A stretch of DNA of 64,000 nt. Source: a virus. Below, in pieces: positions 4,239-58,732 of the stretch. Where the stretch lies: positions 1 through 64,000 of IMG/VR virus record IMGVR_UViG_3300025120_014916; one strand, given 5' to 3'. The position numbers and the translations under genes were made by a program. Within the stretch, counting starts at the first letter, position 1; each line of letters starts with the position of its first letter. The notes beneath the pieces are model-generated. The model was not told where the DNA came from and searched no databases. It was given only the letters and a program-made list of their open reading frames with translations.

Positions 4239-4252
4239 TTTGTTCCTAGGAT

Positions 4253-6347: not shown

Positions 6348-6366
6348 ATTTTCTCCGTTTGTTTTT

Positions 6367-6396
6367 ATTATACACTTGCTGCTAATAGATTTTCAA
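6367..6396 (-). promoter_or_regulatory. Sigma70-like promoter upstream of recA
   Basis: Minus strand TTGAAA-N18-TATAAT, 20 nt upstream of the recA ATG. Confidence 0.65.
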
Positions 6397-6427
6397 ATAA
6401 AAAGGGAGGTAAAATTAATTACCTCCC
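6395..6427 (-). terminator. Rho-independent terminator after ssb
   Basis: GGGAGGTAA-6 nt loop-TTACCTCCC followed by TTTTTATTT. Confidence 0.85.
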
Positions 6428-6448
6428 CCAGATAAAATAATTAATTAA

Positions 6449-7225: not shown

Positions 7226-7284
7226 GATTATCTCCAATTTTTTAATTTTTAATTTGCAATAGTTATTTTTTTTATTGCTTAAGC

Positions 7285-7313
7285 ATTATACCTAAACAGT
7301 ACTCATTATACAA
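7285..7313 (-). promoter_or_regulatory. Sigma70-like promoter upstream of ssb
   Basis: TTGTAT-N17-TATAAT. Confidence 0.65.
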
Positions 7314-7339
7314 ATTAATTATAAAAATATTAACAATCT

Positions 7340-8659: not shown

Positions 8660-8663
8660 ATAG

Positions 8664-27600: not shown

Positions 27601-27775
27601 TGCCAAACTTAAATTCAAAGTCTGAAAAAGATCCAACTGTCACAGGCACAAAAGCAGGGCCCCTCTCAGCAGTCCCAATAACTCCACCGGGGACGCCTTC
27701 AATAGTTGTTTCTCTTGCACTTAGATCAATTTCTCTTTCAAAAAATCCGGGTGATCTGAATGTTTGTTCTTTCAT
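24620..27775 (-). CDS. Tail sheath protein (paralogue B, 1051 aa)
   Basis: SPGFFEREID, GVIGTAERGPAFVP, PWFAPAGFNRG, INPI, FGQKTL, LDRVNVRRML, VFEQN. Confidence 0.93.
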   Translation of the reverse strand: MKEQTFRSPGFFEREIDLSARETTIEGVPGGVIGTAERGPAFVPVTVGSFSDFEFKFGTLDPDRFGPYAADAFLKHKTALTYIRVLGAGANNSIADIQTTELAGTVKNAGYVIEGTLAGAPDTLGRHRGAVQFIAATHEVLASEEGVGDLRFTDNNSFPDPLEVNLVRAAIFPTTASRIEILSHDASYSGTSTTNDVAAIKSYNGTDIQGTFKLVISSSQGASFSSDEGKPGIKIVTASLDPTSEYYVAKVLNTNPDRFEETQHFLYLDFPVESEIAKVKHDPSAATNYSVIIASGSEGTSANSGLSTTSFRDLFGNFKTRYQTARTTSFISQPFGANEYDLFHFEALDDGEIGNKRVKISISNIRRSTNIKDPYGTFSVLVRDLRDNDRDMNILEMYSLCTLNPASDDYVGKKIGDMKAYYNFDAATESEKRAVVSGMRPNRSSYVRIIMNSAVEDGLIPKSSLPFGFRGLPVLKLNDNLTDGTAVLSMGSNRSRLSFVAAGTANDAQITHSIVPPIPFTFKATKGKVASSPTFTGQPGSLELSDNRYFWGVKTQRIGLTGSIGQPALYPNGYGGVNKIIESYSKLLGIQKLDTLVTGSGADAFNNNKFTLARVCLNNQSDATANLEDALKNEITGSANEHMREAAYIRNAELVSPNSTVVDVGFTRRLTFASLMASTEYKYFNRFTDYLKFTNIMYGGFDGLNILDRDMRLMNDKASSNDSAAGGKAAGSDHGPLKIFNSSNGTGYTSGQGDDNNIISSYKTAGKIITDPLASRVNVIATPGIRSNYVTDHIGQLAKEYSKAIYIMDINAYDDNLNTIFDDSTTRPNVRKTVEQFDGRAIDNNYVATYFPDVIKNDRINGDAVNMPASVAALGALAYNDAIAYPWFAPAGFNRGALNEVINTEVRLNTEDRNILYEARINPIANFPTGPFVIFGQKTLQQSRSALDRVNVRRMLLEVKRIVSDIANRIVFEQNTPSTRNRFVAEVTPALSNIQVQQGVDQFRVVMDASNNTQLDVEQNRLNGKIILVPTRAIEFIAMDFIITNSGVSFE

Positions 27776-30951: not shown

Positions 30952-31497
30952 CTATTCGCCTCCGCCGTCAAAGCCGGCTTCGATACCACCTTCTATGCCG
31001 GGTTCATAATAATTGTCATGATCTCTGTAGCCATAAAAATAAGGGTATAGCTTTTTTAAATTTCTTTTAGAAGTTTTTTTCTTTTTCTTTTTTTTGTATT
31101 TTTTGTATTTTCTTTCGCTAATAGCAGACCCTTCTTCGTGCATTTCAATGCCATGCTTTTCGTGAAGTTCGTCAATACTATCTGAATCTTTTACTTTTTC
31201 AAGCAATATTGCAGGAATATCAGTCTCAATAGCACCACCAGACCATCTTACGTCATAAAAGTTAATATCACCATTCTCTTTCAATGAATGCCACATCACT
31301 TCACCAACTTCATTTAAGGAAGAACCCTTCTTCCGGACATGAGTCAGTCATGTATGTCCTATAATATCTTTTGCAGCTTGATCCTTATTGCTCACATGAT
31401 TAATGCCGTAAGTAAACCCGTCTTCCTTGCTGACGTAAGAAAGCCTTTCTAGCTCTTCAAATATTAGAGCTCGCAATTTGCTTATTGATAGTTTCAT
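30952..31497 (-). CDS. Hypothetical head-associated protein interrupted by an in-frame UGA at codon 50 (readthrough, nonsense mutation, or two genes)
   Basis: ATG at 31497 gives MKLSISKLRALIFEEL...DIIGHT*LTHVRKKGSSLNEVGEVMWHSL..., in frame with the track's 30952..31299 ORF. Confidence 0.6.
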
Positions 31498-31515
31498 TTT
31501 GTTTTTCTTGCTTGG

Positions 31516-31884
31516 TTAATAATTTCGATCTTCATCCGGATCTCGGGCATTCATTCGAACATATTCCATATAACTGTCATGCTGATCAGGTGCTAAGTCT
31601 TCAGAACTTTGTTCATCATATTCTAAAGGTAGTGCTAATTGCTCAGGTTGAGATTCTATCTGATAGATTTTAGAATATATACTACTTAATTCTGTTTCCA
31701 TCGGGCCGAGATATCCATACGCGTATGCTTCGTTCTCTCCGCCCATATCTAACACATGATCATTCATCTGCTTTGTGAGCATGGCTGCTTTTTCTTTAAG
31801 AGCACGCAATTCATTGCTAGCTTCTGCAATTAAGCTTAGCTCTTCTTTAATGAGTCTTCTTATTGCTTTTCTATTTAATTTCAT
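31516..31884 (-). CDS. Small acidic hypothetical protein with shared N-terminal leader
   Basis: MKLNRKAIRRLIKEEL; AGGAG RBS. Confidence 0.8.
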   Translation of the reverse strand: MKLNRKAIRRLIKEELSLIAEASNELRALKEKAAMLTKQMNDHVLDMGGENEAYAYGYLGPMETELSSIYSKIYQIESQPEQLALPLEYDEQSSEDLAPDQHDSYMEYVRMNARDPDEDRNY

Positions 31885-31905
31885 TTCTTGCTCCTAAAAT
31901 TTAAA

Positions 31906-32304
31906 CTATCTATCGTAGTCGCCGCTCATGATATCTTCACAGCATTCAATGAGCGCAGCTTTTGTTATTTCGCAAGAGCAACATTCAATAAGGCACATAA
32001 CAGCTGCACAGCAGTCTTCACGAGAAACATTGCCCATTGAAGATCCCATCATTGGAGTTGCGTCTGATGTGTGCATTGGAAGAAGTGCATCCATGTCATT
32101 ATCCTTAGGCATGTCATCTTCGTATTCATCACAACCGCAAGGACTCATTCCACATGCGTCACATCCGTGTTTATGACTTCCAACATGTCCTATGTCTTGT
32201 GAGAATGCACCGACTTTTCCGAAAGGTTGCATTCCAGTCATACCGATCATTTTAAATTCTGTAAGAATCATTTTTTGTAGTTGTTTCCGATTTAGTTTTG
32301 ACAT
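31906..32304 (-). CDS. Small Cys-rich protein with shared N-terminal leader
   Basis: MSKLNRKQLQKMILTEF; 12 Cys in two clusters; AGGAG RBS. Confidence 0.8.
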   Translation of the reverse strand: MSKLNRKQLQKMILTEFKMIGMTGMQPFGKVGAFSQDIGHVGSHKHGCDACGMSPCGCDEYEDDMPKDNDMDALLPMHTSDATPMMGSSMGNVSREDCCAAVMCLIECCSCEITKAALIECCEDIMSGDYDR

Positions 32305-40337: not shown

Positions 40338-40574
40338 TTATAACCTCTTTAATAGTTTTTGTTTAAGAGTATTTTTTACTGCTTCTATTTTTTTTAAATC
40401 AGATCTTTTTTTTGTTTTTGATTCGTTAAGAAGTTTAATAACTTTTAAATACGATTCAATAATTCTTTTATTTGATAATTTACTTTTTCTATTTTGCAAC
40501 TTTCTAAGTTTAAATTTTTCTTCTGCAATTATTCTTTTAAGCGTTGCAGGTGTTAGTTTTCTTACTCTTTTCAT
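40338..40574 (-). CDS. Small basic protein with shared N-terminal leader
   Basis: KLTPATLKRIIAEE; very Lys/Arg-rich; AGGAG RBS. Confidence 0.75.
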   Translation of the reverse strand: MKRVRKLTPATLKRIIAEEKFKLRKLQNRKSKLSNKRIIESYLKVIKLLNESKTKKRSDLKKIEAVKNTLKQKLLKRL

Positions 40575-40596
40575 ATCTTCTCCTGTTAAAATAAAA

Positions 40597-40644
40597 ACAC
40601 AACTTAACTTTGCATTTATAACTATCGCCTAGGTTAAGTTGTGT
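40597..40644. repeat. 12-bp perfect inverted repeat with a 24-bp spacer
   Basis: ACACAACTTAAC (40597-40608) and GTTAAGTTGTGT (40633-40644). Confidence 0.9.
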
Positions 40645-40667
40645 CTTATTTATAAAATAAAAAAATG

Positions 40668-41138
40668 TTATCCAAACGCTAAAGATGCCCATTTTGAAGA
40701 AGCTTCTTCCCCAAACAATTTCTCAGGACTATTACTCTCTACCATTCGCTGCGCAGTATCACCAGAACCTGTGGGTGTAAAACCTTTTTTACTATCTGCT
40801 GCTAATTGATCCTGGAGGGTTGTATGTGCTGTATCAGCCAACATTTCTGCAAGTACAGGATCGTTAGTAATATTTGAAGCTAACTCATCTAGCCTTTTGT
40901 TCTTTTTTATATTCTTACTGACTTCACTGTCATTGTCAATGTTATCTAAGTATTTGGGCGTTTTTGATCTTCTGCTATACTTGCTTTCTGAAACAGACAT
41001 CGCTTCTTTGAGTGTTCTGGCTTTTTTTGCGCTCGAACGCGATGTCTTGGCTTCAGAATTCAAACCTTCAGCTAAGATTTCTATTAAGCATTCTTTAACA
41101 ATACCTTTTATAACGTTTTTGGTTAATTTATCTGCCAT
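40668..41138 (-). CDS. Hypothetical head-module protein with shared N-terminal leader
   Basis: MADKLTKNVIKGIVKECLIEILAEG. ATG at 41138 overlaps the protease stop (TAATG). Confidence 0.78.
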   Translation of the reverse strand: MADKLTKNVIKGIVKECLIEILAEGLNSEAKTSRSSAKKARTLKEAMSVSESKYSRRSKTPKYLDNIDNDSEVSKNIKKNKRLDELASNITNDPVLAEMLADTAHTTLQDQLAADSKKGFTPTGSGDTAQRMVESNSPEKLFGEEASSKWASLAFG

Positions 41139-41743
41139 TAGTCTTCCCACCTTAATATGTCATTAAACATTCTATTTATTCTATCTGATTTGTTAAAAGA
41201 TTTGTTAAGCTCAGAATTTGATATTTTCTTACCTTCACTCATCATAAAAGCACCTGGGGTGCTAGGTTCGGAAACCATGTCAAAGCAGATTAATTGAAAA
41301 TCTTCTTGAACTATTTGTGTATCGCCTTGGCTTTGTGTAGAACCTACGCCACGTGATGAGATGCCTAGTGTTACGCCACTCTCAATAAGTGACTGTATAA
41401 TTTTACCGCTAGGCGTATCAAGTAACTCTATGACACCGTAGACGTTGTCACCTTGCATCCTAGCTTCTTTTACTACGTGCGAAACATTTTTAAGTTCAAC
41501 AACAGATGATTCTGGGTGGTCACATTCGCCCAGTGCTCTATTTTCTTGAATGAGTTTTTGATAATTAATCACTTCCCGTTCTAAAATTGTTCTGGGGTAT
41601 ATTCTGCCATTTTGATTAAGTGTATTAGCTCTTTGTATAATGCCTTTTAGTAATACCTTTCCGTATTTTTCTTTTGATTCTTTAAGCATCTGCTTGTCAA
41701 TACTAATTGGACACCATTCTGTTAATAATTTTCTATCTGTCAT
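41138..41743 (-). CDS. Prohead maturation protease, T4 gp21-like
   Basis: NQNGRIYPR, RALGECDHP (catalytic His), LGISSRGVGS (catalytic Ser), DMVSEPSTPGAF. Confidence 0.95.
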   Translation of the reverse strand: MTDRKLLTEWCPISIDKQMLKESKEKYGKVLLKGIIQRANTLNQNGRIYPRTILEREVINYQKLIQENRALGECDHPESSVVELKNVSHVVKEARMQGDNVYGVIELLDTPSGKIIQSLIESGVTLGISSRGVGSTQSQGDTQIVQEDFQLICFDMVSEPSTPGAFMMSEGKKISNSELNKSFNKSDRINRMFNDILRWED

Positions 41744-46622: not shown

Positions 46623-46885
46623 TTTTTCTCCTCAGGGTTTAACTGACATTTTCTATTATAAATATGCGTTTCTAGAGTTTCTTTATCAGGTCGCCACCCT
46701 TCTTTCCATTCTTTTTTTCTTGCTTCTATAAAAGTTAAGTAACAATCATTACAAGAACCGTCATAATCTTTTGAACTTTTAAAGTCTAATAAAGATGTTA
46801 ATGTAAACTTGCACAACGAACAGAAAAAATATTCATTACTTTGAGATAGTGAATCTTTAAAAATAACTTTATGGTTGATATACAT
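46619..46885 (-). CDS. Small CxxC...CxxC Zn-binding protein
   Basis: FCSLC...SCNDCY...WKEGWRP; ATGA overlap with the next gene. Confidence 0.72.
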   Translation of the reverse strand: MYINHKVIFKDSLSQSNEYFFCSLCKFTLTSLLDFKSSKDYDGSCNDCYLTFIEARKKEWKEGWRPDKETLETHIYNRKCQLNPEEKK

Positions 46886-49800
46886 GTGAATCTACTCCTT
46901 CTTTTATTATTTCTATTGTATTGTCTACAATATCTTTAATCGCATCAATATGAGAAATAATTATAATGTTTTTAAATAATTTTTTAAACGATGTTAGTAG
47001 TTTACTACAAGATTCTAGATTTGTTTCATCTAGCGCACCAAAACCTTCATCAATTATCAGCATGTTTGTCTTAGGAAGCGTTGAGACATTAATCAATGCA
47101 ACCCTTATCGCCAACGATGCCATCATTTTTTCCATACCTGATGCTAATTCAACAATTCTTCTGCTATCACCGTAGTTTATATAGATATCCATAGCATTAC
47201 TTTTTAAATCTGCTTCTAACTCTATAGTGAATCCGACAACGCCTTGTAAGATTTTTGATATCTCTGCATTAATTTTTGGTAATAGTGAGTATAGAAGCTG
47301 AACTGGAATTCCTCTTTTTGAGGTTGCTTGAATAAACATGTCATAAAGTTTAAGATCTTTATTTATTTTCTGATAATCCTCTAAATTCTTTTTGTAGAGA
47401 TCTCTTTTTGCGCGCCATGATGCAGTTTGACTTATCGCAGTGTCTCTTTTAGAATTAATTTGTTTTCTTTCTCTTTCAAGCTGACTGATGCGATTATGTA
47501 TTTCTTGAAACTCGCTCGAGTCTTGCGAATTAAAAAGTACTAATGTGTTTTTGTAATCTTGTTCTGCAGTGTTTAGCTGTCTTTTTAAGTTAACTATAGT
47601 TTGAATTGCTCTTTCAATTTTAATCTTTCTTTCAGATATTTCATCTACAAATTTTGACTTTTTGCTTAGAATTGTATTGTATTGTTCTATTTTCTTTTCG
47701 TAATCTTCTGATAGATTATTTAATTCGTTATCTATGTCATCAACTTTTACAGATAGAAAAGTTACTTTTTCTTCTTGATTGTCAAGTTTTTGCTTATTTC
47801 TATGTGAATTCTTAATGAATTTGCATGTTGGGAAACTGTCGCCACAAGGTACTTGATCTAGTATTTTTACAGATTTAGATATGTTATCTAATTCTTTCCT
47901 CTCAAGTTTTAAATTTCCTTTGAGTTCAATCAAAGATTGCCTGATTTTTCTTTTTGCGTCCCTCTTCTTTTTTATATCTTTTAAATTAAAATTGACTAAA
48001 AAGTTTTCAATCTTTTTAATTTTTGCTGTTTGCTCACTAATAGATTCAACTAGTTCAAACTTTTTATTTTCTAAAATTGATATATCGTTTTTTATCTTTA
48101 TGCAGCTAGCTTCCTTCTTATCAACAGTAGACTGCGGCATGTATTCTATTTCTTCGCTTATGCTCGTTTTCATTTCTTTTATTGTTGATTCAACTTCTTC
48201 TAGCTTGTTTTCACACGAAACCTTTACTAATAAGTGTTCATCAATCTTGCTTAAGCAGTGATTGTATTTATCTTCCCAGTTATCTGATGACAATACATTG
48301 ATTTTACTTCTTAAAGGACTGCACTCTTTTTTTGCCAATTCTGACATTTTATCGAAAACTTCCAAGTCTAAAAAGTTTGATAGGATATTTTTTCTAGCAG
48401 CCGCCTTTTCTTTAATAAAATTATTTATCTCTCCCTGTGAAGCTAAACTTGTCATTAAAAATTCTTCACTGGTGCCTATTGTCTTTCTAAGTATTTTTTC
48501 TGTTTCTCTTCTTTGTTCATCTGTTAAATCCTCTATAATATCTCCCGATCCGTTAAGTCTATAAAACTTTAAAGAGGTAGGTGCCCAAATATCTTTCTTT
48601 GTCTGCTTTTTAATTGTTTCTCTAGATATTCTATAAGGTATTCCTGCTACGCTTATGTCTATGTCTGCTGAACAGCTACTAAATCTTGTGTTGATTATGT
48701 GTAGATTTTTTATAGAGCCACGATCTGATGCATTAAAAAGTCCGTATACTAGACTTCCAATAACAGAAGACTTTCCGCGTGCATTTCTTCCAAATATACC
48801 AGTAATACCCGGCAAATTATCAAAATTAATATAGTTACCTTTACCGTATGAAAAGGTACTATCAAATTTCATGGAGTTGATGGTCCAATTGGAATTTCTA
48901 TTGTCTTCACCAGATTTTGATATTGTGTCAATATATTGGCTAGTCATTAAATTTAACTTTTCCCACTGATGATCATCTAAGTCATGACTGTCATAATAAG
49001 CTTTGATTAATTCAATTTGAACGTTTGAGTCTCTTAGATTTAATGCCTTATCATTTGTTTGATCGACTAGATTTTTTTCAGAATCAAACTTTGTCTCTAT
49101 CTTAAAAACAACTTCTTTTGCGTTATGACTCTTTTTTAACTGTTTTCTCAGTCTTTTAGCATCTGCTTGGGATATAAAATTATCAGCGCGTATTCTAAAT
49201 CTAGATTGGCGCGGATGATATTTGCATTCTATTAGCGTTGTCTTTATATCGCCTTGCCAGTCAACAGTTATGAAAGGATGAATATTTTTTACAGGTATGT
49301 ATTTAACATCAAAGTCGTTTCGGCCTCTTATGTCCCAAAACAAAAAACCCTTATCTGGCGTTTCGCCATAATTTTGCTGAATCGTACTTCCACAATACGC
49401 AACAGTTTTGTGTTTATCTAGAAACTGTCGCTTATGTATGTCTCCTAGTAATGCAAAATCATAATTTTTAAAAAACCCTAAGTTAACTTCGCCGCCTAAT
49501 TGCCAATCAATGTCTGTTAGTGATCCTCGCACGGAGCCATGAAACAATGCGATATTTATATCAGAAGGATCAGGTTTTAGATCGACCCAGTTTTCTTCAT
49601 CAAAACATGAAAAGACGCACCATTTAAAACCTGGATGACCCGTATCATATATACCTGTATCCTTTAAAAGAAATATGTTAGGATTGTCTATAGCGTTTAT
49701 GATTGGTGTGATTGCGTCTTGTCGATCTTTGTTTAATATGAGTCCGTCATGATTGCCTAATATTACATGAACTGGGCATATTGATGCCATCTTATTAAAC

Positions 49801-49991
49801 CACCAACAGAGACTCTGTATTAGCTCTGGTGATATTCCTTGTGTTTTACTATGTACAATATCACCCCCAATGTATATTACGTCAGGTTTGCAATCTCGTG
49901 CTTTTTTAAAAAAATCATTAAATGCTAATATGTACTCTTCATGCCTAGATAGTCCGCGCCAGTGGACGTCTGCAATATGAATAATCTTCAT
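46869..49991 (-). CDS. Fused SbcD(Mre11)-SbcC(Rad50) nuclease-ATPase
   Basis: N-terminal metallophosphoesterase (HIADVH, GGDIVH, LGNHD, FHG, LGDIH), then Walker A GRNARGKS, coiled coil, ASGME signature, IIDEG and ISH, all in one ORF. Confidence 0.92.
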   Translation of the reverse strand: MKIIHIADVHWRGLSRHEEYILAFNDFFKKARDCKPDVIYIGGDIVHSKTQGISPELIQSLCWWFNKMASICPVHVILGNHDGLILNKDRQDAITPIINAIDNPNIFLLKDTGIYDTGHPGFKWCVFSCFDEENWVDLKPDPSDINIALFHGSVRGSLTDIDWQLGGEVNLGFFKNYDFALLGDIHKRQFLDKHKTVAYCGSTIQQNYGETPDKGFLFWDIRGRNDFDVKYIPVKNIHPFITVDWQGDIKTTLIECKYHPRQSRFRIRADNFISQADAKRLRKQLKKSHNAKEVVFKIETKFDSEKNLVDQTNDKALNLRDSNVQIELIKAYYDSHDLDDHQWEKLNLMTSQYIDTISKSGEDNRNSNWTINSMKFDSTFSYGKGNYINFDNLPGITGIFGRNARGKSSVIGSLVYGLFNASDRGSIKNLHIINTRFSSCSADIDISVAGIPYRISRETIKKQTKKDIWAPTSLKFYRLNGSGDIIEDLTDEQRRETEKILRKTIGTSEEFLMTSLASQGEINNFIKEKAAARKNILSNFLDLEVFDKMSELAKKECSPLRSKINVLSSDNWEDKYNHCLSKIDEHLLVKVSCENKLEEVESTIKEMKTSISEEIEYMPQSTVDKKEASCIKIKNDISILENKKFELVESISEQTAKIKKIENFLVNFNLKDIKKKRDAKRKIRQSLIELKGNLKLERKELDNISKSVKILDQVPCGDSFPTCKFIKNSHRNKQKLDNQEEKVTFLSVKVDDIDNELNNLSEDYEKKIEQYNTILSKKSKFVDEISERKIKIERAIQTIVNLKRQLNTAEQDYKNTLVLFNSQDSSEFQEIHNRISQLERERKQINSKRDTAISQTASWRAKRDLYKKNLEDYQKINKDLKLYDMFIQATSKRGIPVQLLYSLLPKINAEISKILQGVVGFTIELEADLKSNAMDIYINYGDSRRIVELASGMEKMMASLAIRVALINVSTLPKTNMLIIDEGFGALDETNLESCSKLLTSFKKLFKNIIIISHIDAIKDIVDNTIEIIKEGVDSHVYQP

Positions 49992-50004
49992 TTATTCTCC
50001 TTGT

Positions 50005-51264
50005 TTAACTCATCTTCACAATAGAATCTCTTTTTTCTTTTGTGAAGTGAAGTTCGTATCCTGGTAATAATACCCAGCATCTTTTAGAAATACAAGTTTT
50101 TGGTTTAGGGGCACAACCATCTGTCATTACAATGCAACCGTCAAACTCAGATGATCTAGATCGAAAGTGATCTTCAACGCAATTAAAACATGTACCACCT
50201 GTTAATGTTCTCATAGGATTTCTATATTTCTGACCTTTTCTCCATGCGTACTCTGAGCCTTTATCAACTGTTGTATCAAAATGAAAGACCTTAAATGATA
50301 CGTTTTTTGCTAGTCCTTCTAAGGCTGAAAAAAACATTGCAATGCCATCATCGCCAACAGATCCGGATTGATCTATGTATATCGCAAGACTGGACGTCCT
50401 TCTTACTCTTGTCCCAGGATGAATATAAGGATATTTTCTATTTATTTTTCTAAAAGTTCTAGATTTTTTTGACTTTTGTTTAGTTCCACAAAAGTACTGG
50501 AGCGTTTTTTTCCAATCAATAACGGTGTCAAACATTAACGATATATCATCTTTTACCAATGTTGAACATGATCCCCAGCCATTCGATCTTGTATTTGCTT
50601 TATTTGCTGATCTCTTTATAATATCTTTAAGTTTTCCTTTCATAATTTCAATATCAGAATCTGTTAATGATCCGTCACCATCTAGATGCACATCAAAACC
50701 TGATGATGTTCCATCACCATATGCTTCTTGAAAAGCGCTTGAGACTTCTTTGTCTTCCTTAAGCTTTTCCATGTACCACTCTGAAGCCTTGCACTTTGGA
50801 AGATCAGCTAAAAACTTAGACATTTTTTTATTTCTTTTAATTATTTCTTCGGGCAAGTCTGACACACTTTTTTCGCTTAACGGTTTTCCCGGAATCAAAC
50901 CACCATCTGGTAGATAGTTTTCTGAAATAAGTGAATTAATTGCGAGATCTGTTGCTATATTCCAAAGTGTGTGTGGATCTTGCTTTCTAGCTACTACGTG
51001 TTGGTATATCAAGTGGTAACATTCATGTTTCATAAGTCCATAAAATTTAAGCTTGGGTAAGCTCGAAACAAAGTCAGGATTCCAATAAAGTGCAAAAGAG
51101 TTGTCTTTTACTGTAACACCCGCAGTCGGAATGTCATACGTCTTTATTTTCTTTAAATTCATAACTATTGATGCAAAAAATGGTTCTTCAAGTAAAAAAT
51201 CAACCATTAATTTATCAAATTTTCTGTCTGTTATCGTATGACCGTTAAATTCTTTAATTTCCAT
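50005..51264 (-). CDS. Putative metallopeptidase-vWA protein (DUF2201-like)
   Basis: HECYH...WNIATDLAIN; C-terminal MIDAS DQSGS, GGT and TDG. Confidence 0.85.
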   Translation of the reverse strand: MEIKEFNGHTITDRKFDKLMVDFLLEEPFFASIVMNLKKIKTYDIPTAGVTVKDNSFALYWNPDFVSSLPKLKFYGLMKHECYHLIYQHVVARKQDPHTLWNIATDLAINSLISENYLPDGGLIPGKPLSEKSVSDLPEEIIKRNKKMSKFLADLPKCKASEWYMEKLKEDKEVSSAFQEAYGDGTSSGFDVHLDGDGSLTDSDIEIMKGKLKDIIKRSANKANTRSNGWGSCSTLVKDDISLMFDTVIDWKKTLQYFCGTKQKSKKSRTFRKINRKYPYIHPGTRVRRTSSLAIYIDQSGSVGDDGIAMFFSALEGLAKNVSFKVFHFDTTVDKGSEYAWRKGQKYRNPMRTLTGGTCFNCVEDHFRSRSSEFDGCIVMTDGCAPKPKTCISKRCWVLLPGYELHFTKEKRDSIVKMS

Positions 51265-51290
51265 TATTTCTCCTTTATGTTTATAATACT

Positions 51291-51319
51291 ATTATAACGT
51301 ATTATGCATACCGTTACAT
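51291..51319 (-). promoter_or_regulatory. Sigma70-like promoter, atypical -35
   Basis: ATGTAA-N17-TATAAT. Confidence 0.5.
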
Positions 51320-51349
51320 GCGTTAACAATTACTGCATATGCATAATAC
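51299..51349. repeat. 12-bp perfect inverted repeat with a 27-bp spacer
   Basis: GTATTATGCATA (51299-51310) and TATGCATAATAC (51338-51349). Confidence 0.85.
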
Positions 51350-51364
51350 ATGCTTATAAAACTA

Positions 51365-52432
51365 TTATTTCATTTCCGGACTGGCTTTGACTATTTTTGT
51401 TACTAGCGTTCCAAAATGTCTATGAAAATTCTTTATCAAATTAAGAATTTTTGTTTCCATAATCAAGTTAAAGAAATTGACAATCATTTCATCCGGACAT
51501 GCTTTAACATAATCTGAAATATTTTTAACTTGCTTAAGTGTAATGGTTTCGTGATTGGCATCAAGATATAACATGATTTTTTCAATTAAATCATTTTTCT
51601 TATCTTCGTTTAACATTGTCATTATGTCGTCTTTTACTTCACCATAACGATCTGCTACATCTTCAGCGCTAAAGCTTCTTGTATAGTCTTGCAAAAATCC
51701 AATAAACTTAGTTGTTGCAGAACTTCCAATAAATCCTAAACTTAGAGGAAATAAAAGTGCCGGCATTGATTTGTTTCCAGCATAATGATTAGGATTTAAA
51801 TTAGCGTGAATGAGTGTTTCACATAATCTATGCCATGACGCAGGATTTGGATATACTTTCCCCGGTTCCATTTCACCAGTATGACGCAAAAAATTTGAAT
51901 GCGTTTTTATAAATTCTTGCACAACAGAAGGAATATCGTCTCTGCTATACGCCCAGTCTAACCAGTCGTCTACAGTAGGCTCTAAGTCTATAGTCCAAAA
52001 TCTACGCAATAGTGCTGGATCCATATCTAGAACTTGGTATTCACTGCCTTCGTTAACTGCTGCATAAACACGTGTCTCTGGGTGCAATTTATGGCCGTTA
52101 AGCTCTCTATCTAAAACGATCTGGAATGCGCATTGTTGTACTTCCAAAGTTGCTCTGTTAAGCTCATCAAAAAATAGTACAACAGGCTCTTTACATGCCC
52201 TTACATACCAGTTTACCGGTGCAAAGCGCGTAACGCCATCAACCAATTCCGGAAGGCCTATAATATCACCTTCAGTCATTTGTGCTAGACGTCTATCGAT
52301 AACCGGCATATTAAGCGCTTTACCGACACTATGAACAATGTGTGATTTTCCAATACCTGTTGGGCCTTTTGCCAAAATAGAAATATGTGCAGGTAGGTTT
52401 GATGCTGACTTGATGAATGTTTTGATATCCAT
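51365..52432 (-). CDS. MoxR/dynein-related AAA+ ATPase
   Basis: GPTGIGKS, LFFDELNR, AAVN, DPALLRRF, PNPASW. Confidence 0.9.
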   Translation of the reverse strand: MDIKTFIKSASNLPAHISILAKGPTGIGKSHIVHSVGKALNMPVIDRRLAQMTEGDIIGLPELVDGVTRFAPVNWYVRACKEPVVLFFDELNRATLEVQQCAFQIVLDRELNGHKLHPETRVYAAVNEGSEYQVLDMDPALLRRFWTIDLEPTVDDWLDWAYSRDDIPSVVQEFIKTHSNFLRHTGEMEPGKVYPNPASWHRLCETLIHANLNPNHYAGNKSMPALLFPLSLGFIGSSATTKFIGFLQDYTRSFSAEDVADRYGEVKDDIMTMLNEDKKNDLIEKIMLYLDANHETITLKQVKNISDYVKACPDEMIVNFFNLIMETKILNLIKNFHRHFGTLVTKIVKASPEMK

Positions 52433-52468
52433 GTTTTTCTCCTTGATTGTTATTTTGTTTGCTTTATT

Positions 52469-52497
52469 ATTATATTTGGTTTTTGTTTTGATTGCAC
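52469..52497 (-). promoter_or_regulatory. Sigma70-like promoter, atypical -35
   Basis: GTGCAA-N17-TATAAT. Confidence 0.5.
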
Positions 52498-52502
52498 GAT
52501 TT

Positions 52503-52931
52503 TCATCTAACGGGTTTTAATGTTTTTGGGTAATACCAGTTATTACCGGAGGAAGTAACAACATATACTTGACCCGAATAGCTATCTAGATTTTTTTTCA
52601 TATCATGAGCGTGATTTTGATTTAATTCTATGTTTACTGCATTGTTGTTAACTATAATACCGATTTCACCATTTGGTAAGTATACTAACTCACCTTCTAA
52701 ATAGTTCCAGCTTACTTTAGGCTTAGGCTTGTTAATTTCTTTCTTGCGATCATATATTTCAGACCGGTCCTTCCTGGTAAAGCCTAACTTGTCTTTTTTC
52801 TCTTTAGACTCAATAACTTTTTCTTCATACATGTCAGGATTTTTGTCTTTCAGCGCTTCAAGTTCTAGTTGCCTTTTTTCTTTAGCTTGCTCTCTGGCTT
52901 TTTTTATTTGGGATCTAGATAATTTTGCCAT
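52503..52931 (-). CDS. Hypothetical protein, charged N-terminus and possible SH3-like C-terminus
   Basis: 142-aa ORF; EGELVYLPNGEIGIIV...GQVYVVTS pattern. Confidence 0.7.
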   Translation of the reverse strand: MAKLSRSQIKKAREQAKEKRQLELEALKDKNPDMYEEKVIESKEKKDKLGFTRKDRSEIYDRKKEINKPKPKVSWNYLEGELVYLPNGEIGIIVNNNAVNIELNQNHAHDMKKNLDSYSGQVYVVTSSGNNWYYPKTLKPVR

Positions 52932-52963
52932 GGCTGTACCTTTTGTTTAATTGTTATGTTTAT

Positions 52964-52992
52964 ATTATATACCAATTATAAGGTGATTGCAT
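52964..52992 (-). promoter_or_regulatory. Sigma70-like promoter, atypical -35
   Basis: ATGCAA-N17-TATAAT. Confidence 0.5.
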
Positions 52993-53008
52993 GAAAATTA
53001 CAAGTATA

Positions 53009-54274
53009 CTATCTTAAAGCATCAAAGTACAAGTTTAATTTATCTATATAGTTATGACCTATTATTTTATTGACCCTTTCAAAGTTATAATTCATGTCTT
53101 TGCAAAGAATTGTTCTGCCAATCCTTCCATTACCATCAGAAAATGGATGTATATGCTCAAAATATGCGTGTCTCATGAATGGGTTTGAAGAATCTAGCGC
53201 GCAAAAATATTGTAGTTCATTGTAAATTTTATTAGTATCTATATATTTGTGACCGGTCGGGGAATTATGTTCAAAGTTTCGAAATTCCCCAGGTTTACCT
53301 CTTGTAAGACACTCAGGAAACATCTGGTTGTGCAAAGCAACAATATTAAAAGGGCTTTCAATATCATTAAACTTATATGAATATACTAGTGGTGCTATTA
53401 AAGTTTTTAAAAAAACACTATCAGTAACATATTCGAGAGGATACCCGCTATAAACTTTTGATGCCGCATTAATGCATTCTTGATATGGTACATTAAAGTT
53501 TTCTTTTTGATTAGACTTGTGAAGAAATGTGGCTAATGCAGTAATTGAATTATCTAGATTGTTTGACTTTTTTATCAAGAAGTTTGCAAAGCTTTTGTGA
53601 TCAGCTTTTTTTAACTTTTCAAAATTATAATTTTTATCTTGTGTTCCTGCAATAAATATTGCAGATAACATTTGGCCTATTATTTTGCCTGATGATATAT
53701 CAGTCGGGTAGTGTTTTCCGTTTTCTATTCTTGACTGGCCAATTAACTCTGCCAACATTTCCAAATCAGGCATCAATTCAGGATAAGAATCTCCAAGAAT
53801 GCCAGCTATAAAATAAGCTATACATGTATGTCCGGACGGAAAAGAAGGCGAAGATGATTCCTTAATTGACTCATAAATACTTCCCTCATCAACCAGGTAT
53901 GTTTTTGGTCGGGGCCGCTTGTGGGTGTACTTAAGTCTAAGAATGATTGTGTCTACATCTTTTAGAATATTTTTTATTTTTTTCCAATCAGGATTTAAAC
54001 TCATTTCTTCACAAAATACATTAAAACAATCTTCAACGGAACTGTCAGAAAGATTTAAAAAGCCGTCATCAAGACTAGGATTACTATAATAAAACTTTAC
54101 TGCGTCTAGATCTCTTTGATGCTCTATAGAGAAAACATCGGGACATGTTAATCGAGGTAGATTTTTTTCACTGTCTATAATAAACTTGCAATCTCTAGCA
54201 ATTCTTTTCTTAAATTTCTTAGGTACAACATTGTCGTCCTTAGTAAGATCAAATAGAGATTGTATCGAATTCAT
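53009..54274 (-). CDS. PAP2-family phosphatase fused to a Fic domain
   Basis: KYTHKRPRP (Kx6RP), FPSGH and SRIENGKHYPTD (SRx5Hx3D); C-terminal HPFSDGNGRIGR. Confidence 0.9.
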   Translation of the reverse strand: MNSIQSLFDLTKDDNVVPKKFKKRIARDCKFIIDSEKNLPRLTCPDVFSIEHQRDLDAVKFYYSNPSLDDGFLNLSDSSVEDCFNVFCEEMSLNPDWKKIKNILKDVDTIILRLKYTHKRPRPKTYLVDEGSIYESIKESSSPSFPSGHTCIAYFIAGILGDSYPELMPDLEMLAELIGQSRIENGKHYPTDISSGKIIGQMLSAIFIAGTQDKNYNFEKLKKADHKSFANFLIKKSNNLDNSITALATFLHKSNQKENFNVPYQECINAASKVYSGYPLEYVTDSVFLKTLIAPLVYSYKFNDIESPFNIVALHNQMFPECLTRGKPGEFRNFEHNSPTGHKYIDTNKIYNELQYFCALDSSNPFMRHAYFEHIHPFSDGNGRIGRTILCKDMNYNFERVNKIIGHNYIDKLNLYFDALR

Positions 54275-54813
54275 TACAGATCGCCTTCAAATTTATCGTA
54301 GTCAAGCGAGTGATACACTTCTGATATATCATCAGATATTTGTGCTATTTTAGTTCTTTGCCAATCATCTAGCTCGTAACCATCAGGAATCATTCCTAAA
54401 AGCTTTTGTGCGTATTTTGCAACTTTATAAAGTGAAGGCTTTGCCATGTAATTGTTGGATTTAATTTCGTGACTGTTAGCGTCGTTAAAACTAATCTGTG
54501 TTGATTTTGCGCCTACATCAAACAAATCATACATTGCATCTATAGAATTGTCTGTGCTATTATTAGAAGATCCTCCGCAACCGCAGTCACCCTCAGTCAA
54601 ACTAGATATTTCATACATGCTACCGCATTGTTCGCAAACTGATTCACCTTCATACATTGCTGACCCACACTCTGTACATGATCTTTTATTCTGCATGCTT
54701 CTATACAAATCTTGTCGACCCGGGTCATCAAAGCCTGATTGTAATGCGTCTTCTTTGATTTTATTTATTTCTTGAATTATAAGCTTTCTAATTATGCTTC
54801 TTTTTAGCTTCAT
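54274..54813 (-). CDS. Zn-ribbon protein with shared N-terminal leader
   Basis: MKLKRSIIRKLIIQEI; CTECG...CEQCG; stop overlaps the PAP2-Fic start (TAATG). Confidence 0.8.
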   Translation of the reverse strand: MKLKRSIIRKLIIQEINKIKEDALQSGFDDPGRQDLYRSMQNKRSCTECGSAMYEGESVCEQCGSMYEISSLTEGDCGCGGSSNNSTDNSIDAMYDLFDVGAKSTQISFNDANSHEIKSNNYMAKPSLYKVAKYAQKLLGMIPDGYELDDWQRTKIAQISDDISEVYHSLDYDKFEGDL

Positions 54814-54823
54814 GGTATATCCT

Positions 54824-55789
54824 TTAAAACATTGAGCCTGAATTGATGTTCGATATTAAATATCTTACAGACTGAGCAAAATCAAAAGGTTTTGCATTGT
54901 TTATGTAGTATTGTACTTCATCTTTTTTCATGTCACCAAAATCTTTATTTTTGTGAAGTGAGATTCTAGCTGGTACACAATAACTATTAAGTAGCTTAAC
55001 TATATTTAATGATTTTTTTCTGGCATCCGGGTCTAGACAAACAACAACTGGCGTTTTGTTTTTTACAATTTCTTTAAAAAGCAGGTAGTCTTCACCAAGC
55101 CAACTGCCTAAAATGCAAGTGGCATTGTCAGGAGCATTCATTAAATCAAATACGCCCTCTACAAGAATCAATTCTTTTTTAAAGTCTAAATTAAATTGTC
55201 TAAATATCACTTCTTTTCTGGAAACTGTACAGTTTTTGTATCTTCTTGGATTTTTTCTATTTATAGATCGCGAAACAAAATAATTTAAATTGCCGATAGC
55301 ATCATGCGAAGGAAAGATAACTCTGTCTTTAAACTCATAGCTGTTACTAACGCCTATGCAGAATTTATGTAAATGATCGTTACTCATTCCGCGTTCTTTT
55401 AAATAGTTGATATGATATCGATATCTTTGCATGCCGCGAGAACTTAAGTTTGTCAATAGTGTAAAGTCATCAGGAAGTTCAACCTTTTTTTCTTCTTCCT
55501 CTTCTATTTCTTTTTTAAACCCGCCATACGAATCTGACAGTTTTTTCGCGGTATCTTTGTTTTTTGCAAATTTAAATGCGGGCCGGCCAATATTTCTACC
55601 TTTTGACTCGCAAACCCAGCAGTGATACACACCGCTTTCTAATCGTATTGATAATTTCTTCTTTGAAGATATTTTTCCTTTTTCTTTACAGAAAGGACAT
55701 GCGATAGACACGTTTTTTTCGTCCCCAGATAGGGAATATTTACCAAAGCATGCTTCAATTAAATTTAATTTTTGAGATAATGTAATCAT
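54824..55789 (-). CDS. DNA primase (DnaG/T4 gp61-like)
   Basis: Zn finger CPFC...HCWVC, YLKERG, RVIFP, TOPRIM LVEGVFD and CLDPDA, KDFGD. Confidence 0.9.
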   Translation of the reverse strand: MITLSQKLNLIEACFGKYSLSGDEKNVSIACPFCKEKGKISSKKKLSIRLESGVYHCWVCESKGRNIGRPAFKFAKNKDTAKKLSDSYGGFKKEIEEEEEKKVELPDDFTLLTNLSSRGMQRYRYHINYLKERGMSNDHLHKFCIGVSNSYEFKDRVIFPSHDAIGNLNYFVSRSINRKNPRRYKNCTVSRKEVIFRQFNLDFKKELILVEGVFDLMNAPDNATCILGSWLGEDYLLFKEIVKNKTPVVVCLDPDARKKSLNIVKLLNSYCVPARISLHKNKDFGDMKKDEVQYYINNAKPFDFAQSVRYLISNINSGSMF

Positions 55790-55795
55790 GTGTAT

Positions 55796-55824
55796 ATTAT
55801 ATCAAAACATTAATCTTTTTTCAA
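55796..55824 (-). promoter_or_regulatory. Sigma70-like promoter upstream of primase
   Basis: TTGAAA-N17-TATAAT; the -35 overlaps the upstream TGA stop. Confidence 0.65.
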
Positions 55825-56351
55825 ATTTTATTATACGCTCTTCCAATAACATATGCATCTGCCATATCATAACAAGCAGACAGCTCTCTAGTCTTGCCTT
55901 TGCTTGGGCCACTTTTCATAATCTTTGTTGGCCATTTTACATTTTCTTGTAACTTTACCCAATCTAAAACCTGTTCTTTGGTTGAAGCATCAGATTTTCT
56001 ATTAATTTTTAAACCTACAGACTTTCTAGCAGAATTAACATTAATTGATTCTATTTCAACATTAAGCATCTCATGGCATATCCACCTAACAGTTCCGTTA
56101 AACTGGGCTAATGTCATTAAAGTTTTTGCTGAGCTTAGTCCTGGCCTAAATGCTTGCAAGTTCTCTTCAATTCCAATTTTTGTAATATTATACTTTTTAT
56201 TTATCTTAGATATCTCAGATTTGATGTGAGCAGCTTTTTTGTAAAAGTCCTTATGTTTACTTAGTTCTATATAACCGATGTCTCTAAGTTCATCCTGGTC
56301 AAACACACAGTATCCTGTGCAACTAGTTGATACGTCTAGTGATAATAACAT
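55821..56351 (-). CDS. RuvC-like Holliday junction resolvase
   Basis: LLSLDVSTSCTGY, IGIEE, ARKSVG, YDMADAYVIG. Confidence 0.8.
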   Translation of the reverse strand: MLLSLDVSTSCTGYCVFDQDELRDIGYIELSKHKDFYKKAAHIKSEISKINKKYNITKIGIEENLQAFRPGLSSAKTLMTLAQFNGTVRWICHEMLNVEIESINVNSARKSVGLKINRKSDASTKEQVLDWVKLQENVKWPTKIMKSGPSKGKTRELSACYDMADAYVIGRAYNKI

Positions 56352-58732
56352 TAAAAATCCTGTTTAAGTCTGATAATAAATTCATCTTCCTCAGTCTTTG
56401 GAATCGGTTGAGAAAAATTTGCCTTCATTATAATATTAAAGTTATCATCATGAATGTTAACTGCTGAAATGTAAACAGTTGTTAAATCTCTATCAGAAAC
56501 AGCATTTGTTGGGGGATTAGGTCTAAATGTTTTATTGCTCGAGCTATTTATCTGGCCTTTTTCACAAGGTACGTTTAATATCATTGTGTGAATGTTTTGA
56601 TCACCTTTAAACTTTATATCTGTCTTGTCTTTTCCAAAATAAGGCAGGTGAGGGGTTTTTAAAACAACCATACCTTCATGATAAAATATGTCACCAATAT
56701 TATTCCATCTTGCTTGTTTTGTTTTACAATCTGCCCTGTAAAGACTTCCAGCACCATTGTCTTTAATCTTTATTTTTATCTTGCCTTCTGATCCTGTCAA
56801 GTTTTCATCATATATTTCTAAAGTCTCTTCTGTTATTTTGTTACCATAATACAGATTAGATATGTCAAAAATAGTTGTTTCATTACTGGAAAGATCTCTT
56901 GTTCTTTGAGCTATTGTAAGAACGCTACCCGGAGCTGATCCGGGGTTTTCCGGGCTAGCTCCAACTATTTGATCAAAGATAGACCCAGCTTGGAAAACTA
57001 ATCCTGGGTACAAAGAAGACGCAGGAATCAAGTCATCTAAATTTATCCTGCCATAATCTACTACACTTCCATTGTTAACATAAGACAAGCTAGCACTTTG
57101 CGCAGATATCGAAAGCGGATAATAGTCAGGATAAAACAGACCATTATCACATGGCAGCAGTGAAAGATTTCTCTTTTTTAGTGAGCCGGTGTTATAGACA
57201 AAGTCATCAGCAGTTATGTTTAATACAGTTTCTGTCATAACAGAACCGGTTAGCGATTGCAATCTCGGGTATTCGCCTTTTATAAATTCTCTTACAAAAT
57301 TTTCTAAATTTATCATCTTGCCGCCTACTCCAAAAGAGTACGCAGTATTAATAGGATCGTCTGTCTTTGTCTTTATTGTCTGAAAAGGCGTGACAATAAC
57401 TTCTCTTGTTCTCGAGTCAGGATAAAAGAAGGGGGGCACATAAAATATAAGATCAGAATACAAACTATCATCTGACACATCACAGCCTTCTTTAGTTGTC
57501 TTGACTTGATTGACACCTTGAATCGCTAGATTGTTTATTTCATGCGGGTTTAAAGCGCGCTTGAATAGCTTAACATCATGTAATTCTGCATTTAGCGGAT
57601 GATTTAATAAACTTTCTTGATTTAAAGGCTCACTTGAAATAGAAGTCAATTGCGTTAAACCTTGAGCTACAGAAACTGTCGAGTTAAAAAATGTTTCGGC
57701 TACTGAAGGGCTACCATTGTAGTAATTACCAATGCATATTATTTTATTATTACTAGTTGTAATAGAACTAGAAGGGATATGAAAATCAGTGTAATTTTTG
57801 TCAATACCAATACTGCCTGATGCATTATTAAAATTTGGATCCCAGTACACAGTTACATGATGCCAATTATTCTTTCTTAAAGCAAAAGAGGAAGTAAATA
57901 TCAAATCACTTTGACCATTAATGTTATTTAAATTTATACTTGCAGGCGTAATGTCAGCACTATGACTAAGTTGTAATAATATTTTATAATCATCAACTAG
58001 ATTATACTCATCTCTCAAAGAGCCTGTAACTAAACTTACAGCAATTGACGATGACATGTGAAATATTGTTCCTGCTGAAAACTCAGCGCTGGGTGTTACA
58101 TTGTCATACCTGGGATTGATCCAGAAATCAAGTGTAAACCCAGCTGATGGGTTGTACACATCATTTTTGTTTGGGTAGATTAAACAACTATCGTCGGGAG
58201 TATTGTTTGTTGTATAAAAATTAAGACAGTTAAAGTTTGTATAGTGTATTCCAGAGTCTGGATATCTGTGTTTGTGATATGGGTATAATATGTTGTTTAA
58301 ATTTCGTTTAACAACATGGTTTAAATTAAACTTTAAAGGTGTGTCAAATCTAAAAATATCAAGAAGTTTGGAAAATCTAATGTTTTTCGGTGCTTTGTTT
58401 GATGCATCTAAATACTCAGACATGTGACTATGTATGTCAATACCCGGAGATGAGTATTTAGATGCAGATGTGATTGTTTTTACTTTTGCATCACTTAAAA
58501 CATTATCAATATTAAAATCTAACTCGTTAAACGCAATATTATCTTTTTTTAAATTGACCTCAGTGATATTATCACTAGCAATATTGCGAATACATTTTGA
58601 TCTTATAGGTGAAACATAAACACTACCAGTCGCAGGTATTTCTCCGATTGAAGAAGAAATGAAATGTACCTGTGGTCTGGTTTTGATAGTTGTTGTTTCA
58701 AACAATTCACGTGATAGTTTAATAAAGGACAT
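56351..58732 (-). CDS. LamG / concanavalin-A-like domain virion protein
   Basis: FTLDFWINP...NWHHVTV...LHDVKLFKRAL; C-terminal module shared with the upstream gene. Confidence 0.65.
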   Translation of the reverse strand: MSFIKLSRELFETTTIKTRPQVHFISSSIGEIPATGSVYVSPIRSKCIRNIASDNITEVNLKKDNIAFNELDFNIDNVLSDAKVKTITSASKYSSPGIDIHSHMSEYLDASNKAPKNIRFSKLLDIFRFDTPLKFNLNHVVKRNLNNILYPYHKHRYPDSGIHYTNFNCLNFYTTNNTPDDSCLIYPNKNDVYNPSAGFTLDFWINPRYDNVTPSAEFSAGTIFHMSSSIAVSLVTGSLRDEYNLVDDYKILLQLSHSADITPASINLNNINGQSDLIFTSSFALRKNNWHHVTVYWDPNFNNASGSIGIDKNYTDFHIPSSSITTSNNKIICIGNYYNGSPSVAETFFNSTVSVAQGLTQLTSISSEPLNQESLLNHPLNAELHDVKLFKRALNPHEINNLAIQGVNQVKTTKEGCDVSDDSLYSDLIFYVPPFFYPDSRTREVIVTPFQTIKTKTDDPINTAYSFGVGGKMINLENFVREFIKGEYPRLQSLTGSVMTETVLNITADDFVYNTGSLKKRNLSLLPCDNGLFYPDYYPLSISAQSASLSYVNNGSVVDYGRINLDDLIPASSLYPGLVFQAGSIFDQIVGASPENPGSAPGSVLTIAQRTRDLSSNETTIFDISNLYYGNKITEETLEIYDENLTGSEGKIKIKIKDNGAGSLYRADCKTKQARWNNIGDIFYHEGMVVLKTPHLPYFGKDKTDIKFKGDQNIHTMILNVPCEKGQINSSSNKTFRPNPPTNAVSDRDLTTVYISAVNIHDDNFNIIMKANFSQPIPKTEEDEFIIRLKQDF

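Follow-up and report, generated by a model that had tools for sequence, protein, structure and literature searches.

Why should a phage carry a phosphatase and a Fic domain on one polypeptide chain? The question is raised by a stretch of 64,000 nucleotides (positions 1 to 64,000 of the IMG/VR virus record IMGVR_UViG_3300025120_014916, hereafter the window), in which a single open reading frame (ORF) of 421 amino acids (aa), at 53009..54274, holds both the signature motifs of the PAP2 phosphatases and the catalytic motif of the Fic enzymes. All genes of the record, and all window features given below, lie on the minus strand. Each of the two enzymes is well understood alone, and their pairing is widespread in ocean metagenomes, where it is confined to viruses. 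Most likely, the protein is a two-headed tool with which the phage acts on its host at an early stage of infection.

Architecture and conservation of the PAP2-Fic protein

The ORF is open throughout and encodes a soluble protein of 48.5 kDa. An earlier note on this DNA, made from the letters alone, had reported three PAP2 motifs and a canonical Fic motif in it, and we located all four and verified their coordinates. The first PAP2 motif, KYTHKRPRP (53906-53932), has the form K115x6RP, with K115 and R122-P123; the second is PSGH146-149 (53828-53839); and the third, SRIENGKHYPTD (53699-53734), has the form SR181x5Hx3D and spans S181-D192. The His of SRX5HX3D is the nucleophile of PAP2 enzymes. 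The Fic motif, HPFSDGNGRIGR (53114..53149), is HPFSDGNGRIGR376-387 and fits the pattern HxFx(D/E)GN(G/K)RxxR. Pfam profiles gave a PAP2 match at residues 114-214 (E 3e-15, 56 bits, cut-off 27.2) and a Fic match at residues 311-390 (E 2e-8, 35.5 bits, cut-off 24). In addition, PADLOC recovered the generic Fic core only (SoFic, PDC-S04), NCBIfam matches fell far under their cut-offs, and PF22778, which is listed for some homologues, was not recovered at E <= 0.01.

An AlphaFold2 model of the fusion, built on 43 homologues, was confident across both domains and the linker, with a predicted local distance difference test score (pLDDT) of 91.8 and a predicted template-modelling score (pTM) of 0.87, and according to this model the protein is a whole phosphatase joined by a linker of ~16 residues to an entire class II Fic domain. 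Residues 23-214 (53633..54208), assigned to the class A acid phosphatases by Pfam and by structure superposition, superpose on complete enzymes of that class (PhoN, PhoC and the E. blattae NSAP) with Z 17-18 and a root mean square deviation of 2.5-3.5 A, covering ~180 of ~220 residues at ~20% identity. Vanadium haloperoxidases gave Z 14-16 at 10-14% identity and were matched over only part of those larger two-bundle chains (~410-600 aa); class A phosphatases, matched over the whole length, are the better fit. The class A structures compared (PhoN 2A96/2AKC, E. blattae 1D2T/1EOI, PhoC 9QCJ, Shigella 8YC1 and P. aeruginosa 7F17) have the same motifs and the same all-helical fold, from which the phage-encoded protein differs in its fusion to Fic and in carrying a 22-residue N-terminal extension instead of a signal peptide. 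No signal peptide, transmembrane segment or hydrophobic N-terminus was found in it. Residues 1-22 form a conserved hydrophilic extension outside the phosphatase fold, at the position of the class A signal peptide, and begin with a family-specific peptide, MNSIQSLFDLTK (54239..54274), of consensus M-x-S-I-Q-x-L-F-E/D-E-T-K. Because the class A secretion signal is replaced by this conserved 12-residue peptide, the fusion would work inside the cell, and it is predicted to be cytoplasmic, whereas the class A enzymes are periplasmic.

The C-terminal part, residues 231-421 (53012..53584), was assigned to the class II Fic enzymes likewise by Pfam and by superposition, on FICD (Z 15.6) and CdFic (Z 15.3) over 170-181 residues, with a range of Z 14-16 when Coxiella Fic2 is included. 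When FICD chain 214-411 was aligned onto residues 238-421 of the model, Glu234 of FICD fell at approximately Glu258, in the inhibitory-helix motif S254-N-Q-K-E-N259 (SNQKEN, 53498..53515), which has the form (S/T)xxxE(G/N) and sits in model helix 240-257, ~118 residues upstream of the Fic catalytic motif. The flap region consists of short strands at 330-343 and includes an invariant R332. The fusion thus shares HPFxDGNGRxxR, inhibitory helix, flap and fold with class II enzymes (human FICD/HYPE 4U0S/6I7G, CdFic 4X2C-E and Coxiella Fic2 8CIL), but it has no TPR or other targeting domain, and its N-terminal partner is an enzyme. In class II proteins the Glu is salt-bridged to the second Arg of this motif and keeps ATP from binding productively; in FICD the same residue supports de-AMPylation, and CdFic auto-AMPylates despite its presence (PMC8097203). 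By this comparison, the C-terminal half may be an AMP transferase restrained by its own Glu258, in a FICD-like configuration that would also support de-AMPylation.

Among 5.8 billion proteins searched, 117 relatives, ~400-440 aa long, share this architecture; all of them are marine or metagenomic and are named only 'hypothetical', 'acid phosphatase (class A)' or 'fido', and the ESM Atlas holds two fusion clusters, 100% viral. The fusion was not found in one genome each of 185,579 prokaryote species, scanned with one peptide pattern, and GenBank phages yielded no homologue either of it or of the Zn-ribbon protein encoded upstream. Fourteen IMG/VR contigs, of up to 237 kb, carry it in a collinear 13-kb block with the order orf401, LamG-like protein of 793 aa, RuvC, primase, Zn-ribbon protein, PAP2-Fic, orf142, AAA5 ATPase, VWA-metallopeptidase and gp46/47. 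A literature search found no paper on a PAP2-Fic architecture, and nothing relevant on phage Fic, on RNA repair with Fic or PAP2, or on a virion acid phosphatase; PAP2 is also absent from the Fic survey PMC4454073. The earlier suggestion of an uncharacterised architecture with both active sites intact therefore stands: the fusion is a real, conserved, virus-only gene, an unstudied pairing built from two known kinds of enzyme.

Which of the two activities is kept was assessed by counting residue conservation in 109 full-length family members. K115, R122, P123, PSGH, R182, H188 and D192 are invariant (109/109), and S181 is Thr in four. The Fic His376 is present in 92/109, and ~16% of members are pseudo-Fic. 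In 87 members Glu258, His376 and Arg387 occur together, and in 13 all three are lost (His-by-Glu association, Fisher p 2e-12, a value not corrected for phylogeny); as Glu and His are lost together, the inhibitory helix truly belongs to the Fic active site. On a tree of PAP2 only, loss of His376 takes ~6 changes, at least two of which are forced by supported branches. After the loss, identity is 31% in the Fic half against 48% in PAP2, compared with 38% and 44% respectively in intact members, so the dead Fic half drifts faster yet stays full length. Since the PAP2 residues are invariant and Fic catalysis has been lost repeatedly, the phosphatase is to be regarded as the constant, indispensable activity and Fic catalysis as accessory. 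This pattern also speaks against the writer/eraser pair that the earlier note had envisaged, as does the known chemistry, PAP2 enzymes cleaving phosphomonoesters and not an AMP-protein phosphodiester. In one sub-clade (P0083, P0085, P0089 and P0099) the catalytic His is kept in a motif HPFxDGNGRLNR and Lys replaces the inhibitory Glu (NFKN/NFKK); these may be naturally de-repressed Fic variants. The family thus offers a natural series from intact Fic through Glu-to-Lys to dead Fic, with the phosphatase unchanged, as a ready-made dissection of the two activities.

Transcription, leader peptides and packaging

The fusion is the third gene in a row that begins with a DnaG-type primase (54824..55789, assigned by profile match and synteny), the first gene of the inferred operon, and continues with the gene of a 179-aa acidic protein (54274..54813). 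Our promoter scan placed a sigma70-type site, TTGAAA-17-TATAAT with a TG extension (55796..55824), directly upstream of the primase; it matches at 11/12 positions and is the best on the coding strand, and TTGAAA-17-TAxAAT is present at the same place in ~10/14 relatives. No terminator-like site was found on the coding strand between this promoter and orf142, which has its own promoter. Early co-transcription of the primase, the Zn-ribbon gene and the fusion is the better-supported reading of these signals, as a gene that shares a host-sigma70-type promoter with the primase would be made early, and the former view that the fusion is made late finds no support here. That view had leaned on a late-type motif in the primase 3' end (54856-54863). 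The site reads ATATTTAA and not TATAAATA, the T4 late box, which itself shows no enrichment across the window (14 matches, with 9.8 expected). What stood up was its conservation, since the ATATTTAATA box (54854..54863) is kept as ATATTTA(A/T)TA at -48 to -52 in 10/12 relatives; there it overlaps the conserved primase codons R-Y-L-I. The core ATATTTA recurs upstream of six genes and differs from the TATATAA / TATAAGA boxes before structural genes. Possibly the box is an internal promoter, or merely the trace of conserved R-Y-L-I codons.

The 179-aa protein starts with a leader, MKLKRSIIRKLIIQE (54751-54813), that is common to five other ORFs of the window. The pattern K-L-x4-[LIV]-x-[KR..]-[LIMV]-[ILV]-x1-2-E marks these six unrelated ORFs, and a stricter form of it matched four ORFs genome-wide, against none in ten shuffled genomes. 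All copies end in [ILV]-x-E, and in the 179-aa protein the Glu residues of IQE15 and IKE21 are invariant in 13 homologues. Two of the tagged ORFs, of 156 aa and 78 aa (40338..41138), lie directly downstream of a T4 gp21-type prohead maturation protease (41138..41743; phrog_207, E 1e-53), and three small ones lie downstream of the capsid gene (31348..32304). In T4, gp21 cuts after L/I-X-E (PMC9026906), and a capsid-targeting sequence, the N-terminal 10 residues of various internal proteins, brings these into the head, from which they enter the host together with Alt (PMC9026906, PMC3012670). By analogy, the shared leader is probably a capsid-targeting propeptide. The likeness to T4 Alt and IPI-III extends to the gp21-type protease, to an [ILV]-x-E leader on unrelated small head-module proteins and to a protein-modifying candidate cargo; the differences are that Fic and PAP2 take the place of an ADP-ribosyltransferase, that the leader sequence is unlike that of T4 and that the fusion is untagged.

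The leader was also seen at G000 129545-131647 (minus strand) and in four other loci, L017, L018, L019 and L031. Stand-alone homologues of the Fic half, at ~34% identity and with the inhibitory helix included, are found in other marine phages. In L017 (5917-6573) and L018 (5926-6558) a stand-alone class II Fic protein of 210-218 aa starts with the shared leader (MRITRKNLRKIILENI and MRITKNDLRKIIVESI respectively); its gene is next to an amidase_2 + PG_binding_1 gene and has other tagged ORFs as neighbours, including one for a LysM protein. In L019 the gene of a 1026-aa LRV/HEAT-repeat + Fic protein (4009-7089) immediately precedes those of the scaffold and the major capsid protein.

The N-terminal peptide of the fusion is strongly conserved in its own right, with F8 in 102/102 sequences that include the N-terminus, L7 in 92, I/L4 in 96 and E10 in 63/109 members, and it forms a detached, low-pLDDT helix in the model. 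Its pattern matched 10/6,643 Met starts over all loci, against 0.32 expected, and nine of these are fusions. The tenth falls at an internal Met in the Fic protein of L019 (at 4120, MLTLNNIFNE), a start that is uncertain and has no clear ribosome-binding site. Positions 4, 7, 8 and 10 are reported to matter in T4 IPIII (PMC9026906), and these coincide with the conserved positions of the fusion peptide, which is a candidate docking or targeting peptide. We also considered a sliding-clamp tether formed by an N-terminal S-L-F-D peptide; no other ORF closes with a peptide of this kind, the polymerase is of family A, neither Pol B nor a gp45-type clamp was detected, and this idea was dropped as unsupported. 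Taken together, the T4-like leader, the gp21-type protease and the tagged or head-module stand-alone Fic proteins make packaging of the fusion, already raised in the earlier note, circumstantially plausible by analogy, even though the fusion itself bears no tag. If the tags do act in this way, they could serve to delimit what a large group of uncultured phages packs into its capsids.

Proposed role and the alternatives to it

From the conserved motifs, the model and the operon signals, we propose that the fusion is an early-expressed cytoplasmic effector for host takeover or counter-defence, in which a constant phosphatase is combined with an accessory, self-inhibited AMP transferase/de-AMPylase, and we put this at about an even chance. 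Transcribed early with the primase from the host-sigma70-type promoter, the signal-less class A phosphatase would act in the host cytoplasm, and the protein as a whole would strip phosphate from, and add AMP to or remove it from, host targets; possibly, it is also loaded into the capsid and injected in the manner of T4 Alt. Such an effector would be the AMPylation-world counterpart of the T4 ADP-ribosyltransferases, and a rare use of a canonical Fic transferase by a phage. Of the role given to the gene in the earlier note, an action that is probably host-directed thus remains plausible, but lateness, a toxin-antitoxin pairing and a writer/eraser cycle, which had been part of it, are unsupported.

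Several observations weigh against our proposal. The repeated loss of Fic catalysis speaks against AMPylation as the main purpose of the protein, and a related phage PAP2 that is joined to a CCA-transferase (in L031) points to RNA over protein substrates. As for packaging, the fusion does not carry the shared leader, and its N-terminal peptide was found on no other ORF of this genome; moreover, the window copy has Leu10 where the family consensus is Glu10. Entry into the capsid by piggy-back on the leader-tagged neighbour cannot be general, because two loci (L004 and L010) lack the C-terminal hairpin of that protein.

The L031 protein brings us to the healing of RNA ends, which we consider unlikely as the role of the fusion. 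PAP2 would remove the terminal (3') phosphate of cleaved RNA or tRNA and Fic would add AMP or bind RNA or a nucleotide, and the protein would be, again with little likelihood, the functional analogue of a phosphoesterase + CCA-transferase repair enzyme that counters RNA-cleaving defences of the host. CCA-adding enzymes with a phosphoesterase domain and the 'Swiss Army Knife' RNA-repair proteins likewise combine a phosphatase with a nucleotidyltransferase; the transferase of the fusion differs in having the Fic fold, and no ligase or kinase partner was found for it. The L031 ORF (3712-6483) encodes 923 aa comprising DUF192, PolyA_pol (CCA-transferase type), PolyA_pol_RNAbd and a soluble PAP2 domain that is 31% identical to that of the fusion. 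Leader-tagged ORFs surround it, in a viral contig of 293 kb. In L016 the gene immediately following that of a stand-alone Fic homologue encodes HAD_SAK_1 ('Swiss Army Knife RNA repair') + PolyA_pol, although this adjacency is a single case. That gene (6597-9307) is apparently split by a GIY-YIG homing-endonuclease ORF (7599-8399). Neither PolyA_pol nor an Rnl2-type ligase was found in three fusion-bearing records, which would fit substitution by the fusion, but these records are only 40-77% complete. There are, besides, no tRNA genes in the window, and the flap and inhibitory helix of the Fic half are typical of protein-modifying Fic enzymes. To our knowledge, no Fic enzyme uses a nucleic-acid hydroxyl as acceptor or acts on RNA.

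Equally doubtful, in our judgement, is a metabolic auxiliary gene, that is, a non-specific cytoplasmic phosphatase that would free phosphate or reshape nucleotide pools to serve replication of the phage in phosphate-poor seawater, with Fic as a nucleotide-sensing or regulatory module. The invariance of PAP2 catalysis beside a dispensable Fic catalysis agrees with such a role, as do the place of the gene in a replication/recombination block and its co-transcription with the primase. In addition, the closest structures are those of broad-specificity phosphatases acting on nucleotides, and viral contigs commonly encode a soluble PAP2 protein of 214-240 aa that stands alone. However, dephosphorylation of nucleotides works against dNTP supply, a regulatory domain needs neither the canonical catalytic motif nor the co-varying inhibitory Glu that are seen in ~80% of members, and related Fic proteins have capsid-type tags or are encoded in head modules.

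The earlier note had favoured a late-made, possibly packaged enzyme with the Zn-ribbon protein as its chaperone or antitoxin; this reading, extended to a leader-tagged Zn-ribbon protein that would also act as adaptor and bring the enzyme into the capsid, we hold to be distinctly unlikely. The upstream gene was delimited from its ORF, an alignment of homologues and an AlphaFold2 model. Its description as a leader-bearing Zn-ribbon protein is partly upheld: the leader is shared, and the Cys residues of the CxxC-x10-CxxC knuckle (54625-54678), which are accompanied by a CGCG cluster, are invariant, but Pfam Zn-ribbon matches are below cut-off and the knuckle is modelled with low confidence. In the model, a leader helix (residues 5-25) and the weak Zn knuckle are followed by an acidic, disordered middle part and by a C-terminal helical hairpin (residues 121-175, 54289-54453) that is conserved among homologues. 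As had been reported, the stop of this gene overlaps the start of the fusion as TAATG (junction CTGTAATGAAT), and TAATG or TTAATGA overlaps occur in the window and seven relatives, with a Zn-ribbon homologue directly upstream of the fusion in 12/14 loci, for the most part overlapping it as TTAATGA. These features, the leader that resembles the T4 capsid-targeting sequence and the ATATTTAATA box conserved at -48 are what favours a late-made, carried enzyme. Yet tight junctions are ordinary in the window, where the gap is <=2 nucleotides at 14/49, and the adjacency is unspecific because the whole 13-kb block is collinear, so that neither the adjacency nor the overlap says much for a partnership. 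In L004 and L010 the fusion is retained, but all that stands for the Zn-ribbon gene is a short leader-tagged ORF, which has Cys residues and no C-terminal hairpin. Early expression is favoured by the promoter, and the box is unlike the AT-rich motif before structural genes.

The antitoxin function in particular finds no support. The class I Fic pairs (VbhT/VbhA and FicT/FicA) and P1 Doc/Phd likewise have a Fic-fold enzyme directly downstream of a small, translationally coupled gene on a mobile element. In contrast to these, the fusion has its inhibitory Glu in cis, and a conserved helical (S/T)xxxE(G/N) is missing from the upstream protein, whose SSLTEG lies in a low-confidence, non-helical stretch, with an S/T at -4 that is not conserved. 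Moreover, the Zn-ribbon gene is kept beside the catalytically dead Fic of L015 (P0104) and also in L014, of the same low-identity group. The motif of the fusion also reads GNGR where Doc has GNKR.

The most specific form of the RNA reading, in which PAP2 dephosphorylation would be followed by transfer of AMP by Fic to the freed ribose hydroxyl of host-cleaved RNA or tRNA, by a protein possibly delivered with the DNA, seems to us very improbable. If true, the fusion would be the first of the Fic enzymes to act on RNA and a Fic-based replacement for the phosphoesterase + CCA-transferase repair enzyme. An artefact of assembly or annotation, by which two adjacent genes were joined wrongly or a decaying gene was taken for an intact one, has nothing in its favour and can practically be dismissed, as the ~420-aa architecture recurs in >115 independent clusters, none of them characterised, which stem from numerous sources and assemblies, as well as in the 14 IMG/VR contigs, where the reading frame is not split, and the model is confident through the linker.

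The phage and other genes of the window

The source record is a 136 kb viral sequence with a CheckV completeness of ~40% and a GC content of ~34%. The phage is an uncultured marine T4-like myovirus, with a Gp23-type capsid protein, a Gp20 portal, ribonucleotide reductase, the gp21-type prohead protease, a large terminase, two long sheath paralogues and a fused gp46/47-like nuclease. The cultured relatives of its capsid protein are all distant, in Flavobacterium phage immuto (46% identity), Rhodothermus phage RM378 (40%) and Microcystis phage Mel-JY01 (38%). The DNA polymerase is of family A; Pol B and a gp45-type clamp were not detected in three related records, the gp45 model having matched no control genome either. 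The family A signal comes from an ORF of 343 aa (8664-9695), which overlaps another of 448 aa (7340-8686), and the polymerase (7340-9695) may be split or frameshifted. No Rfam family was found within 50000-58000, and no tRNA gene anywhere in the window.

A single 1040-aa ORF (46869-49991) has an N-terminal Mre11-like metallophosphoesterase and a C-terminal Rad50/SbcC-like Walker B region; it is T4 gp47 and gp46 joined in one protein, and this joining is kept in all relatives. Two adjacent proteins of ~1100 aa (21131-24583 and 24620-27775) have tail-sheath domains at their C-terminal ends only, and look like giant duplicated sheath paralogues with ~850-residue N-terminal parts that have no assignment. 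Finally, just downstream of the fusion block, a conserved pair of genes (50005-52432) encodes an AAA_5 (MoxR/CobS-like) ATPase and a DUF2201 VWA + metallopeptidase protein, for which the PHROGs label 'HNH endonuclease' seems to be a misnomer.

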